A stretch of 64,000 nt of DNA from positions 3,962 through 67,961 of the forward strand of contig JBOGEV010000118.1 of assembly GCA_050742015.1 (NCBI GenBank), read 5' to 3'. A program made the translations under genes and the position numbers. The notes under the pieces are model-generated. The model searched no databases, was not told the DNA's origin, and was given only the letters and a program-made list of their open reading frames with translations. Of the stretch, positions 16,496 through 22,373 are shown piece after piece. This DNA comes from Acidimicrobiia bacterium (lineage in GTDB: Bacteria; Actinomycetota; Acidimicrobiia; Spongiisociales; ZC4RG35). How positions within the stretch are numbered: the stretch's first letter is position 1; each line of letters starts with the position of its first letter.

Positions 16496-17026
16496 TCAGC
16501 CTGCGGTTTGTGGTTCGCCCTGCTGGCTCCGGTATCGGGAGATGATCTCGTCCTGCAGGGCATCGATCACCGAATGCAGCTGCCGACGTTGCGCCGAGAG
16601 CTCTGCCTCCACCTCATGGACACGGTCGATGGCCTCGCTCAGCTCCTCACTGGTCAGCTCGGGAAGCTGGGTCAGAATGCCGTCGTCCATGATCCGATCG
16701 ATGAGTCGGCGCCCGGTGGAGGTGGGGAGCGGGGGCATGGTCTCGAGGTGGCGCAGATTGGGCTCGTTGCCCAGGACCATGCCGGTGGCGAGGATCTCGG
16801 GCAGCGCCTCGAGCAGGGTCCGCTCCTCCTGGCCGCTGCGACGCCGCAGCTCGAAATTGAGCAGGTCCATCCGGCCGTGGAGGAGCCGGCGGTAGTACGA
16901 GATCTGGGCCTCGACGTCTTCAGCCGACTCCCGACGCCGTCGGAGCTCGTCTAGGTCGACCTCGGCTATGTCGTCCAGGTAGTCGGGCTCGAGAACCGTG
17001 TCGATGTTGCGTCGGTGCTCGGTCAC
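16496..17026 (-). CDS. RsiG-like coiled-coil protein (candidate c-di-GMP-binding anti-sigma factor homologue)
   Basis: GTG at 17026, immediately after the upstream gene's stop; 176 aa. Two copies of E-x3-S-x2-R-x3-H-x3-D (EAQISYYRRLLHGRMD, EAELSAQRRQLHSVID). The published RsiG motif is E-x3-S-x2-R-x3-Q-x3-D. Confidence 0.5.
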   Translation of the reverse strand: MTEHRRNIDTVLEPDYLDDIAEVDLDELRRRRESAEDVEAQISYYRRLLHGRMDLLNFELRRRSGQEERTLLEALPEILATGMVLGNEPNLRHLETMPPLPTSTGRRLIDRIMDDGILTQLPELTSEELSEAIDRVHEVEAELSAQRRQLHSVIDALQDEIISRYRSQQGEPQTAG

Positions 17027-17036
17027 GGGGTCAAGG

Positions 17037-18128
17037 CTACCTGCAGGCACCGGCCACGGTGGGATAGGGGTTGACCGCCGAGGAGCCACGACCGCCGGGA
17101 TGGATCTCGAAGTGGAGGTGGGGCGAACCTCCCCTGGCGTTCCCGGTGTCACCGTTGAATCCGATCGTCTGCCCCTGGCTCACCGAAGCACCCGAGCTGA
17201 CGTTGAAGCTGGAGAGATGGGCGTAGTAGAAGCCGATTCCGTTGTCGCCGGACAGCCAAATGCTGTTGCCTCCCAGACCACCGCTGCGGGTTGACACCTT
17301 TCCTGAGGTGACGGCATATATCGGCTCGTTCCAGGCCGCGAACATGTCGGTCCCCTTATGGGCCCGGCCCCCGGACCGAGGGCTGCCCCAAGAGTCGATG
17401 AACGAAGTGCGGCCCGGCGTGAAGGGGCAGATGAACGAGCCCACCTGGACCGAGCCTGCGGCTCGCTGCCTCGCCCGCGCCGCCAGCTCCGCCTGTTCCC
17501 GGTCGTATTCGGTGGCCAACTCCTTGCATCGTCCGGACAGCTTGGCGTAGGCCGCATGCTCGGCCTCCATGGCCGACTCCTGTGTGTTGCGCGCGTCCAG
17601 CCGATCCGCCTCGACCACTTCCAGCTCGTTCTGGGTGTCGGCCAGCTGACTCTCGAAGCGATCGAGCTCGCTCCGGGCGGCGATCAGCTCGTCGAGCGAC
17701 TCCTGGCCTCCGGTCGCGGCCGCAGCGAGGAATTCGGACGTGGTCATGAACTGATCGACCGTGGAGGCCGAGAAGATGATGCCCGGGCTAGCCATCCCTC
17801 CCCTCATGTACAGCTCCACCGCCTGTTCTTCGATCTTGGCCTGCACCTGGTCTAGTTCGTCGGTGTGACTGGTCATCGAGCCAGTGACCTGTTCCCGCTT
17901 GCGTTCCACCCGATCGACCTCGATGACGGCGTCTTCGTACTCCCGGGCCGCCGCGGCGAAGGCGCCCTGTGCTTCGCGGTACTCCGCCAGCTGAGCACGG
18001 GAGTCGGCGCATGCCTCTTCTACCTGCGCCTTGGTCACGGCAAGGCCCGAAATCGGGAACAGCGCGGCCAGGAGAGCGATGAGGGTGAGGAGGGTGACGA
18101 CGCGACGAGGCGTCCAGGTGGCACGCAT
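17037..18128 (-). CDS. Secreted M23 family metallopeptidase with N-terminal coiled coil
   Basis: 363 aa. Signal/TM segment, long coiled coil, then HKGTDMFA...[10 protein letters not shown] (HxxxD / HxH zinc motifs). Confidence 0.9.
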
Positions 18129-18192: not shown

Positions 18193-19191
18193 TCAGAGAA
18201 CGAGCAGCAAAAGGGGGTAGTAGATGGCGGCGGCCAGGGCCACGCCATCGAGGCAAACCAGGGCCCCGGGTGGTCGCTCGGTGAGGGTGGCGCGTCCGGT
18301 GCGGAGCATCGAGGAAAGTCCGCGACCTGCGAGCAAGGCCACTGCGATGCCAAGTCCGACGAGCAGGTAAGACACCACATCGAGGTCCCAGATCAAGGCC
18401 GCGCCGACTGCCGAGAGGACGGCTCCGAGAGCGGTCACGGAGAACGGGTCGAGGAGGGGGAGCGGGGGAACGCGTTCCACGATGGACCCGAGGAGAAGGG
18501 CCGCGATAACGGAGACCAAAAAGACGTCGACTGCACTCGCCTCCGGGCTCTGGGCCGACCTGGCGAGTACCAACGACGCCGTGCCCAGCCCCGCGAAGAG
18601 CGACACCATCACCGTCGGGCTGAACACGTCGACGTGCCGATACTGGGGGAAGGCGACGGCCCACCCCATGCCGACGGCGACCGCCAGGACGAGGGCCAGG
18701 GCGTAGCCGGCGCCACCAGCGACGTGGGCGGCCATGGCCGCGCCGGCGGCGGTGACAACCACGGCGAGAGTGGCGAACTCTTTGCCCCTGGAGGTGAACG
18801 CAGAGCCGAGGTCGACTGCCCAAACCCCCACGATGAGCACCAGGACCGCGGCCCAGATCTCCTGGCCCTGAGTGTTGGCCAGAATGGCCACAACGGCCAC
18901 GGCGATGGGCAGGAACCCGATCAGATCGACGGCCGAGAACGTCGTGGTCGGTTGGCTGCCCCCCGATACGGGCGGGATCAGCACCACCTCGTCGGTCTCG
19001 ATGATGTTGTCCTCCATGGACGCCGACTCCCCGTTGACCCACACTCGGGCCGTTTCCACGCCACGGCGGAAGTCGGGGCCGAACTTCTCGGAGGCCGCCT
19101 CGATGACACCGCCAACCGTCTCCGCGGGCACGTCGAGCCTCGAGGTCCCGGCGATCTCACGGAGATTTGCGAACAGGCGGAGCTTTGCCAT
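18193..19191 (-). CDS. MoaD/ThiS-like ubiquitin-fold domain fused to a polytopic membrane domain
   Basis: Internal ATG at 19191 of track ORF 18193..19683; 332 aa. aa1-78 look like a complete MoaD ending LIPPVSGG. The frame continues uninterrupted into about 8 hydrophobic spans. Confidence 0.6.
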   Translation of the reverse strand: MAKLRLFANLREIAGTSRLDVPAETVGGVIEAASEKFGPDFRRGVETARVWVNGESASMEDNIIETDEVVLIPPVSGGSQPTTTFSAVDLIGFLPIAVAVVAILANTQGQEIWAAVLVLIVGVWAVDLGSAFTSRGKEFATLAVVVTAAGAAMAAHVAGGAGYALALVLAVAVGMGWAVAFPQYRHVDVFSPTVMVSLFAGLGTASLVLARSAQSPEASAVDVFLVSVIAALLLGSIVERVPPLPLLDPFSVTALGAVLSAVGAALIWDLDVVSYLLVGLGIAVALLAGRGLSSMLRTGRATLTERPPGALVCLDGVALAAAIYYPLLLLVL

Positions 19192-19257: not shown

Positions 19258-19677
19258 ATGGACGACAGGGTGATGGTGGCTGTCGACGTCCCCCTGGTGG
19301 GGGATGAGCGTCACAAGAACTGGGCCAAGGTCGTGGAGTCGGTCGACAGTGAGAAGGCCTCGGGATGGGCGTTCGAAGGCCCGTTCGTGGCGGCTGGGGG
19401 GATCCAGGACATCCCGATGGGCTCGGTCCTGCTCGTCTACGGAGAACGCGGGTCGCGGGCCAATCCCCAGATCACGGCGCACGTGTACAGGGTCAACGCG
19501 GATTCGACGCTGAGCCTCGAGGCGGAGGCCAAGGGCAAAGCCTGGGCCCGCACCCTTCGTGACCCGGTCGAGCGTTGTCTTGGTGTGGATTCGATCGACC
19601 TCGACTTGTCCTATCTGAGCGACGAGCTTCTCGCGGACGAGCTGCGGACCCGAGGATGGAAGGTGGAACGGACGTGA
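19258..19677 (+). CDS. Hypothetical protein
   Basis: 139 aa ORF. GTGA overlap with the downstream quinone oxidoreductase gene suggests real translation. No family recognised. Confidence 0.45.
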   Translation: MDDRVMVAVDVPLVGDERHKNWAKVVESVDSEKASGWAFEGPFVAAGGIQDIPMGSVLLVYGERGSRANPQITAHVYRVNADSTLSLEAEAKGKAWARTLRDPVERCLGVDSIDLDLSYLSDELLADELRTRGWKVERT

Positions 19678-21350: not shown

Positions 21351-22373
21351 ATGAGCGGACTCGAGTTCATCACCGAAGAGCCCCCGAATGCCGCCGTCCC
21401 TTTGGCCGATCTCGATGGGAGGGGGCTCCCCCAGGAGCGGGTGTACATGCGGAACAGCTTCCCGATGCCCGAGCCCGGACAGGTCACCGGCCAGATAGAG
21501 GTCGACCTCCCCGGCCGCCCGGCGCGCACGCTGACCCCCGACGGACTGGCGGCTCTGGAACACGTCGACCTCGACCTGGTCCTCGAGTGTGCCGGGAACG
21601 GGCGCTCCCTCATGAGGCCGGTGGTCAGCGGGGTGCAATGGGGATTGGGGGGAGCATCGCCGGTCCGGGTCGGGGGGGTGCGGCTCATCGATGCCTTGGG
21701 CGAGATCCCTGATGAGGTGACGGAGATCGTTTCCACCGGGTTCGATCGGGGCAATGTCCACCCCGAGGGCGAGGTGCACTTCGAGTTCTCGGTCCCGGCT
21801 CGCCTGGTCCGGGAGGGCTCGGCGTTGTTGGTGACACACATGGGCGGTGAACCACTGGGCCTCGAGCACGGAGGCCCGGTTCGGTTGGTCGTGCCCGGGC
21901 ACTACGCCATGAAGTCGGTCAAGTGGCTGATCCGGATCGTAGGTGTGACCGAGCCATTCTCCGGCCACTTCGTGAATCGCTACCGCTTCTTCGGCGACGA
22001 CCTCGTCGAAGACGGCGCGCCGGTGGCGGAGATGCAGGTCAGGTCGGTCGTCACATTCCCCGGTCCAGGAGGACGGGTGACCGCCGGAAGAGTGACCGTT
22101 GCCGGATCGGCCTGGTCGGGGCTGGCGGCGGTGGAACGGGTAGCTGTGTCGGTGGACCAGGGAGTGACGTGGGTGGACGCGGAGCTCACACCGGGATCGG
22201 GACCGCTGGCGGCGACTTCATGGCGGCGCGACCTGACCCTCAGTCCCGGGATGCACACGGTCATGGCCCGAGCCACCGACGCCTCCGACAACACTCAGCC
22301 ACTCGTCTCGAGATGGAACAAAGGCGGCTACGCCAACAACGTGGTGCACACCGTCGAATTCGAGGTGGTCTAA
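21351..22373 (+). CDS. Sulfite-oxidase-family molybdopterin oxidoreductase
   Basis: 340 aa. LECAGNGR with the Mo-ligand Cys, GGPVRLVVPGHYAMKSVKWL, and a C-terminal Ig-like dimerisation-type domain. Confidence 0.85.
   Translation: MSGLEFITEEPPNAAVPLADLDGRGLPQERVYMRNSFPMPEPGQVTGQIEVDLPGRPARTLTPDGLAALEHVDLDLVLECAGNGRSLMRPVVSGVQWGLGGASPVRVGGVRLIDALGEIPDEVTEIVSTGFDRGNVHPEGEVHFEFSVPARLVREGSALLVTHMGGEPLGLEHGGPVRLVVPGHYAMKSVKWLIRIVGVTEPFSGHFVNRYRFFGDDLVEDGAPVAEMQVRSVVTFPGPGGRVTAGRVTVAGSAWSGLAAVERVAVSVDQGVTWVDAELTPGSGPLAATSWRRDLTLSPGMHTVMARATDASDNTQPLVSRWNKGGYANNVVHTVEFEVV

Follow-up and report, generated by a model that had tools for sequence, protein, structure and literature searches.

A 64,000-nucleotide stretch of DNA from an Acidimicrobiia bacterium of the order Spongiisociales (GenBank assembly GCA_050742015.1, contig JBOGEV010000118.1, positions 3,962 to 67,961; hereafter the window, with positions counted from its first letter) carries, at 18193-19191 on the reverse strand, a gene in which a complete MoaD/ThiS-type beta-grasp domain is joined in frame to a polytopic membrane domain. 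It is close to certain that this fusion is fixed in a whole order of the Acidimicrobiia and that its N-terminal domain is orthologous to the free-standing MoaD of sister orders. The fused gene is likely to be the housekeeping MoaD of its lineage, made as a precursor that is cleaved after the Gly-Gly (GG) at the end of the MoaD domain. The membrane domain is probably a pseudoenzyme derived from the phosphatidate cytidylyltransferase CdsA. We give the full statement, in which fusion and orthology, cleavage and CdsA ancestry all hold together, slightly better than an even chance. An earlier note, made from the letters of the window, had described the fusion and offered two readings of it, either a cleaved precursor or a beta-grasp domain that a membrane protein has taken over as its cytoplasmic module; we confirm the observation, and the comparative evidence appears to favour the first.

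A MoaD domain continued into a membrane protein

The frame is open through 332 codons, as read from the open reading frame and its translation, to a stop codon at 18193-18195, and its product falls into three parts. Residues 1-78 (18958..19191, reverse strand, like the other two parts) form a MoaD/ThiS beta-grasp domain ending in PPVSGG, with the codons of G77 and G78 at 18958-18963; a variable linker, SQPTTTFSAV in the window, follows at 18928..18957; and residues 89-332 (18196..18927) form a membrane domain of nine transmembrane (TM) helices, predicted to have a cytoplasmic N-terminus and an external C-terminus (N-in/C-out). The Pfam family ThiS (PF02597) matches residues 5-78 over positions 2-76 of its 76 (E 5.5e-9; 36.9 bits against a cut-off of 22.5), that is, over the whole domain and exactly as far as the GG, and it matches 18 of 18 diverse members of the fusion family. 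The statements of the earlier note that residues 1-78 are a complete MoaD/ThiS-like domain and that the frame runs past the GG without a stop into a membrane protein both stand; its count of about eight TM helices has to be raised to the nine of the AlphaFold model.

Among NCBIfam models the best for the fused protein are TIGR01682 (moaD), archaeal MoaD and SAMP1, and the full protein stays under the cut-offs of all three. The isolated domain barely reaches that of archaeal MoaD (49.7 against 49.5 bits), and the SAMP1 score of 35-41 bits is far under the cut-off of 60; TIGR01682 is the top NCBIfam model also for two of the three free orthologues tested. When a profile of the fusion family was compared with the Protein Data Bank (PDB), archaeal SAMP1 and bacterial MoaD structures were found, each aligned as far as its C-terminal GG, with SAMP1 giving the best sequence matches of the N-domain (E 3e-12 to 8e-11). 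The AlphaFold model, built from 35 sequences, has a mean predicted local distance difference test (pLDDT) of 87.8 and consists of a beta-grasp fold at residues 1-75, a low-confidence stretch at residues 76-86 (pLDDT below 50) that spans the GG and linker and is predicted to be disordered, and the nine TM helices, the loop charges of which are consistent with the N-in/C-out topology. Its N-domain is recognised by Foldseek as a beta-grasp fold, with target-normalised TM-scores of 0.78 and 0.82 to the MoaD chains 1fm0_D and 2q5w_D and 0.70 to SAMP1 (3po0). Across the fusion family the linker sequence is not conserved, and the GG is invariant at the end of the domain but internal in the gene product.

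The fused architecture is shared by over 600 proteins in the databases, of about 332 amino acids (aa) each, and those with a taxon name belong to the Acidimicrobiia, save for one mislabelled entry. An exhaustive HMMER search with just the membrane part, run on 1.84 billion representative proteins, returned only 94 clusters; nearly all of the full-length ones are 325-345 aa long with a match beginning at residue 80-105, and the sequences inspected all start with a MoaD domain ending in IPPVSGG, even where identity in the membrane part is 27-30%. A profile of distant members, run against a 5.8-billion-protein set, found close relatives only and did not widen this diversity. In a whole-genome scan the full-length profile matched 109 of 109 sampled genomes of the window's order, with one copy each, and in other orders of the class only its first 80 or so positions found a match. 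All 138 genomes of the order that were scanned with the profile of the membrane domain gave a match, against essentially none elsewhere; the domain is order-specific.

The window comes from a metagenome-assembled genome (MAG) of 344 contigs, 97.9% complete. Beyond this fragmentation, nothing was found in favour of an assembly or frameshift artefact that has joined two really separate genes. We give this practically no chance, as the identical open frame recurs throughout the 600 and more database proteins and in each genome sampled from the order, closed chromosomes included, and the apparent splits in genomes G263 and G284 are contig breaks. The split copies of G290 and G380 likewise lie at contig ends, and database matches of about 250 aa look like fragments or miscalled starts. 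The chromosome of a Candidatus Spongiisociaceae (G001) falls in the window's order. The earlier note had left it to be checked whether orthologues are fused or split: they are fused in all sampled genomes of the order and free-standing in the sister orders.

A scan of species-representative genomes gave 80 loci, 14 fused and 66 free-standing. At the non-fused loci the homologous reading frame is 73-99 aa long, with three longer exceptions, and in the sister orders (loci L026-L091) it is typically 75-80 aa, stands at the equivalent locus and shares 41-60% identity with the fused MoaD. There the free moaD lies directly upstream of a gene for an RsiG-like protein, the stop codon of the one often overlapping the start codon of the other, and a YbjN-family gene follows about 2 kb beyond. 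In the fused order the genes run MoaD-TM, M23 peptidase, RsiG, in some cases asparaginase II, and YbjN. Mean identity is 0.56 among fused and 0.58 among free MoaD domains, and per-column conservation in the two sets correlates with r = 0.79. Invariant in fused and free domains alike are R5, F7, R11, A14, G38, F41, W51, N53, G54, D67, E68 and PPVSGG, the last present at 80 of 80 loci, with the caveat that this motif was itself used to delimit the domains. From this similarity and shared position we take the fused domain to be the orthologue of the free-standing MoaD.

The free orthologues differ in how they end. The C-terminus is exactly GG in 29 of the 66, GG plus one residue in five, GG plus two in 25, and GG plus 3, 6, 12 and 21 residues in one each; two are fused in frame to the RsiG-like protein (241 aa), and one is an implausible read-through. 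Altogether 37 of the 66 run beyond the GG, the commonest extension being of two residues (CR, ST, AA, SR and others). The two MoaD-RsiG proteins (L069:4252-4977 and L079:1924-2649), joined in frame at the GG, come from two diverged lake MAGs and show the carrier joined at its C-terminus, independently and for a second time, to the neighbour encoded downstream of it. Because extension beyond the GG is common in the class, these tails would imply that the C-terminus of MoaD is routinely trimmed in Acidimicrobiia and that loss of the stop codon is tolerated. The simplest history, and the one that we propose, is that moaD and the RsiG-like gene were separated in the ancestor of the order by two genes inserted as a block, one a diverged paralogue of cdsA and the other coding for the M23 peptidase; with loss of the moaD stop codon, the carrier would have become fused in frame to the nine-helix membrane protein.

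The membrane domain and CdsA

Direct searches of the membrane domain against Pfam, NCBIfam and PDB sequences found no match. A model of the TM part alone has nine helices, with a pLDDT of 90.8 and a predicted template modelling score of 0.87; internal duplication is not apparent, the best hhalign result between the two halves (47%) not being significant. A scan of 263 genomes from outside the order with the profile of the domain gave marginal matches, and the best two (E 1.5e-4 and 7.8e-4) are both PF01148 phosphatidate cytidylyltransferases, aligned collinearly from the start of that domain. Alignment with hhalign to a CdsA alignment from Acidimicrobiia gave a probability of 93.8% (E 1.8e-7) over 245 collinear columns; reversed alignments gave 0.8%, and 20 block-shuffles gave at most 38% with a median near 1%. 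Among 334 polytopic reading frames of the window's genome, the genuine CdsA is the top non-self match.

CdsA of Thermotoga maritima (TmCdsA; 4Q2E/4Q2G) has nine TM helices with a cytoplasmic N-terminus and an external C-terminus (PMC4083444), so that the membrane domain resembles CdsA (PF01148) in helix number and topology as well as in the collinear profile alignment. Two results count against the relationship: PF01148 (CTP_transf_1) finds no match at E up to 10 in 18 of 18 family members, and Foldseek comparison of the full and TM-only models with the PDB gave no credible match for the membrane domain, 4q2e and 4q2g being absent from the top 50 in a search run without a positive control. On balance the membrane domain is probably a remote homologue of CdsA. 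The polytopic domain of about 250 aa reported in the earlier note is thus present as residues 89-332, and what it had left anonymous is now a probable degenerate CdsA homologue.

It differs from CdsA in that the catalytic dyad is broken. TmCdsA has a metal-binding dyad of Asp219 and Asp249, with D144, K167, E222, K226 and D246 as accessory residues, and the D219A mutant, altered in the GDxxES motif, loses 98% of its activity (PMC4083444, 4q2g numbering). Mapped through the 4q2g numbering, G218 (G289 in the fused protein), S223 (S294) and the invariant D249-G250 (D315-G316) are kept, and K226 is kept as an invariant arginine, R297. D219 itself corresponds to R290, a variable position (R/Q/K/H/N/E) that is mostly Arg; E222 (now S293), D246 (V312), D144 (Leu), K167 (Ser) and the HGG motif are lost, and seven residues around the CdsA KD motif are deleted. 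Every genome also retains a genuine CdsA. Since the Asp-Asp dyad is broken and a normal CdsA is present in every genome, the membrane domain should not be a canonical cytidine diphosphate-diacylglycerol synthase, and a CdsA-derived pseudoenzyme is its likely identity. Within the domain W124, R185, G289, R297, G309, D315 and G316 are invariant, D127 and D248 nearly so, and these residues lie mostly on the cytoplasmic side.

The only contextual clue to the function of the membrane domain is the gene directly downstream, which encodes a coiled-coil M23 peptidase (17037..18128, reverse strand; PF01551). This gene is the immediate downstream neighbour at every fused locus with enough flank (L012-L022, L025 and G012), and its product, which has a signal or anchor sequence at its N-terminus as well as a coiled coil, would be secreted or anchored. 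The two genes look like an operon and may define a cell-envelope module.

Carriers, processing enzymes and the proposed cleavage

To judge from its genes, the window's order makes molybdopterin. MoaE was found in 76 of 81 good genomes of the order, and five genomes at least 91% complete in which it was not detected retain MoaC and MoeA, so that the missing MoaE is best put down to incompleteness. The same genes rule out the idea that the fused gene is kept in genomes without synthesis of molybdenum cofactor (Moco).

The window's genome has a single MoaE, with no carrier gene beside it, and only two ThiS-family genes, namely the fused gene and one on the short contig C150 for an 87-aa CysO/SAMP1-like carrier that does not match the moaD model. 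In two nearly closed genomes of the same family, G012 (99% complete, 2 contigs) and G139, the fused gene is the sole match to PF02597, and G012 additionally has MoaE, JAMM and an adjacent E1-JAMM pair. Since these two genomes show no other ThiS/MoaD-family gene, the fused gene would be the likely housekeeping MoaD. In the Candidatus Spongiisociaceae chromosome G001 a second MoaD-like carrier of 81 aa, ending in LPPISGG, is encoded at L104:4568-4813 on the reverse strand, directly downstream of the large and FAD (flavin adenine dinucleotide) subunits of a xanthine-dehydrogenase/CO-dehydrogenase-family enzyme.

The earlier note had remarked that no JAMM or E1-like gene is adjacent to the fusion. 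This is correct for the window, yet a search of the genome finds both, as an operon on contig C39 (2354-3900, reverse strand) in which the gene for an E1 with an N-terminal rhodanese domain and a ThiF domain is followed directly by a JAMM/MPN+ gene. The JAMM product (C39:2354-2734) matches PF14464 with E 2.4e-19 and has the metal motif HxH...S..D intact, HSHPQGPAMPSMTD. JAMM was found in 107 of 111 genomes of the order, and the E1-JAMM operon with no carrier gene alongside is kept in the family, occurring also at L114:5033-6473 in G012.

From these inventories the fused protein would be, in at least some genomes of the order, the only visible carrier and the only visible ubiquitin-like (Ubl) substrate for JAMM. 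In the chemistry of MoaD and MoeB, adenylation needs a free C-terminal carboxylate, and together with the lack of another visible carrier this argues for cleavage after G78, which we regard as moderately probable. In the proposed pathway the N-terminal 78 residues would serve as housekeeping MoaD, the sulfur-carrier subunit of molybdopterin synthase. The MoaD domain would stay in the cytoplasm with the membrane domain inserted N-in, and a peptidase would then cut at the proposed site G78|S79. The likeliest peptidase is the JAMM/MPN+ enzyme encoded beside the rhodanese-E1 (MoeZ-like) gene, and the freed GG carboxylate would be adenylated and thiocarboxylated by that E1, for MoaE. The membrane domain would remain as a separate protein with a function probably linked to the neighbouring M23 cell-wall peptidase.

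Several observations weigh against this account. Cleavage is deduced from sequence comparison; the JAMM gene is not adjacent to the fusion gene; and JAMM is equally present in genomes with free carriers, and lies beside a CysO-like carrier in G002 and G005, so that its presence is not specific. Some genomes of the order, such as G001, have a second MoaD-like carrier, and in the window's genome the CysO/SAMP1-like carrier on C150 could in principle serve MoaE. The MoaD assignment itself falls short of the equivalog cut-off of TIGR01682 (66.15), which scores 48.8 bits with the whole protein and 53.1 with the isolated domain. Permanent fusions of a Ubl domain to a TM domain also exist, EccD of the ESX (type VII) system being an example.

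EccD is the model for a reading in which the protein is never cleaved, the beta-grasp domain being a permanent cytoplasmic docking or regulatory module of the CdsA-like protein and another carrier feeding MoaE. EccD is also actinobacterial and likewise has a cytoplasmic beta-grasp domain at its N-terminus, ahead of a polytopic membrane part, and it is the only whole-length analogue that Foldseek finds: the sole PDB match to the whole architecture is EccD3 (6sgz_E, E 8e-3). YukD-type Ubl domains permanently fused to 12-TM domains have been described (Iyer et al. 2006), and the extra carriers in some genomes and the lack of a processing enzyme encoded nearby fit such a module. EccD differs from the fusion, however, in having a YukD-type Ubl without a GG tail, in being uncleaved, in its 11-12 TM helices of an unrelated family and in its ESX context. 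In G012 and G139, moreover, no other ThiS/MoaD-family gene is seen that could feed MoaE, which G012 has. The GG and the MoaD-type invariant residues have not relaxed after the fusion, which a docking domain would not need; the linker is disordered and unconserved; and the tailed free orthologues and RsiG fusions look like the same carrier extended by whatever lies downstream. We consider a permanent module, the main rival explanation, unlikely, and of the two readings in the earlier note it is the cleaved precursor that orthology, unchanged conservation, the sole carrier in G012 and G139 and the tailed orthologues appear to support.

Cleavage might also be the work of the neighbouring M23 peptidase in place of JAMM. 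Lysostaphin-type M23 enzymes are glycyl-glycine endopeptidases, and the M23 gene lies directly downstream at all fused loci with enough flank, a pairing that this would explain. The signal or anchor sequence and coiled coil should nevertheless put the catalytic domain outside the cell, whereas the GG site falls on the inner side, both by the positive-inside rule and because MoaD works in the cytoplasm, and tailed free MoaD orthologues occur at loci that lack this M23 gene; the M23 enzyme is thus a very improbable protease for this site. A further variant makes release of MoaD a regulated step. JAMM would cut only under certain conditions or after membrane insertion, which would couple Moco synthesis, stoichiometrically and spatially, to a CdsA-derived pseudoenzyme working with the M23 peptidase; or uncleaved MoaD could dock the E1, JAMM and MoaE machinery at the membrane. 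This we hold to be rather doubtful.

Neighbouring genes, known systems and significance

Upstream of the fusion gene, and 66 bp from it, a divergent gene (19258..19677, forward strand) encodes a conserved protein of 139 aa with no Pfam match; most of the closer fused loci have it in this upstream position, with 55-85% identity (L012-L016, L021 and G012). The sulfite-oxidase-family molybdoenzyme that the earlier note placed nearby is borne out by matches of PF00174 and PF03404 to the gene at 21351..22373 (forward strand), and it is a user of the cofactor that MoaD helps to make. On the other side, the RsiG-like protein (16496..17152, reverse strand; PF22802), whose gene follows or is fused to the free moaD in sister orders, has two helix motifs of the form E-x3-S-x2-R-x3-H-x3-D, in which His replaces the Gln of Streptomyces RsiG; the MoaD-RsiG fusions of L069 and L079 have the canonical Gln in the first motif. 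At L043:8358-9698 (forward strand), in an Acidimicrobium-like MAG, a YbjN-family domain and a pyrroline-5-carboxylate reductase (ProC) share one frame of 446 aa, and the surroundings, which include a His-phosphatase and a GT4 glycosyltransferase, recall the actinobacterial gpm-mshA-ybjN region.

The fusion belongs to a known class, the GG-fusion precursors of beta-grasp proteins, and what is new is the membrane-protein partner. MoaX of Mycobacterium tuberculosis is cut between G82 and S83, and the cut is needed for molybdopterin synthase activity (PMC4326299); DrJAMM cuts the MoaD-MoaE fusion of Deinococcus, and HvJAMM1 cuts linear SAMP1 fusions (PMC8832034). Like MoaX and the MoaD-MoaE protein of D. 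radiodurans (DR2607), the present protein has an internal GG and a C-terminal fusion to another protein, and here too the site is GG|S. The partner in those two cases is MoaE, whereas here it is an unrelated nine-TM protein with MoaE encoded elsewhere, and the fusion is fixed in a whole order. SAMP1 of Haloferax volcanii is likewise a MoaD-type Ubl that is activated by a single E1 and whose linear fusions are cut by JAMM; no sign of protein conjugation was seen for the fused MoaD, here taken to be a sulfur carrier.

The arrangement also recalls the ubiquitin precursors Ub-L40 and Ub-S27a and the Rpn11-processed ubiquitin precursor of Caldiarchaeum, in which an N-terminal GG beta-grasp domain is released by a GG-specific peptidase and the C-terminal partner is functional in its own right; in the present protein the release is our inference. 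In those precursors the partner is a short tail or a small, soluble protein of the ribosome, and the released domain is a protein modifier, in contrast to the sulfur carrier and polytopic membrane partner found here.

In the literature searched, including the survey of Iyer, Burroughs and Aravind, we found no fusion of MoaD to a membrane protein described; the only fusions listed there are MoaD-MoaE, ThiS-ThiG, ThiS-sulfite reductase and MoaD-AOR. If cleavage is real, this would be the first case found in which a prokaryotic sulfur-carrier or Ubl protein is synthesised at the N-terminal end of a polytopic membrane protein, the logic of ubiquitin-fusion precursors would extend to bacteria and to membrane proteins, and the widespread orphan E1-JAMM operons would gain a concrete predicted substrate. 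The membrane domain, if its remote homology is true, would be an unrecognised and catalytically degenerate branch of the CdsA superfamily. On the regulated-release variant, the protein would be a bacterial polyprotein resembling ubiquitin fusions that ties cofactor supply to envelope biogenesis. There is also a practical consequence, since the 332-aa proteins are annotated as 'MoaD/ThiS family protein' or 'molybdopterin converting factor small subunit' and may be miscounted by pathway-reconstruction tools. The Acidimicrobiia offer a natural series, from free MoaD with no tail, by way of tails of 1-21 residues, to fusion with RsiG and with the membrane domain, which is well suited to the study of how GG-specific processing may make the loss of a stop codon harmless and so let gene fusions become fixed.

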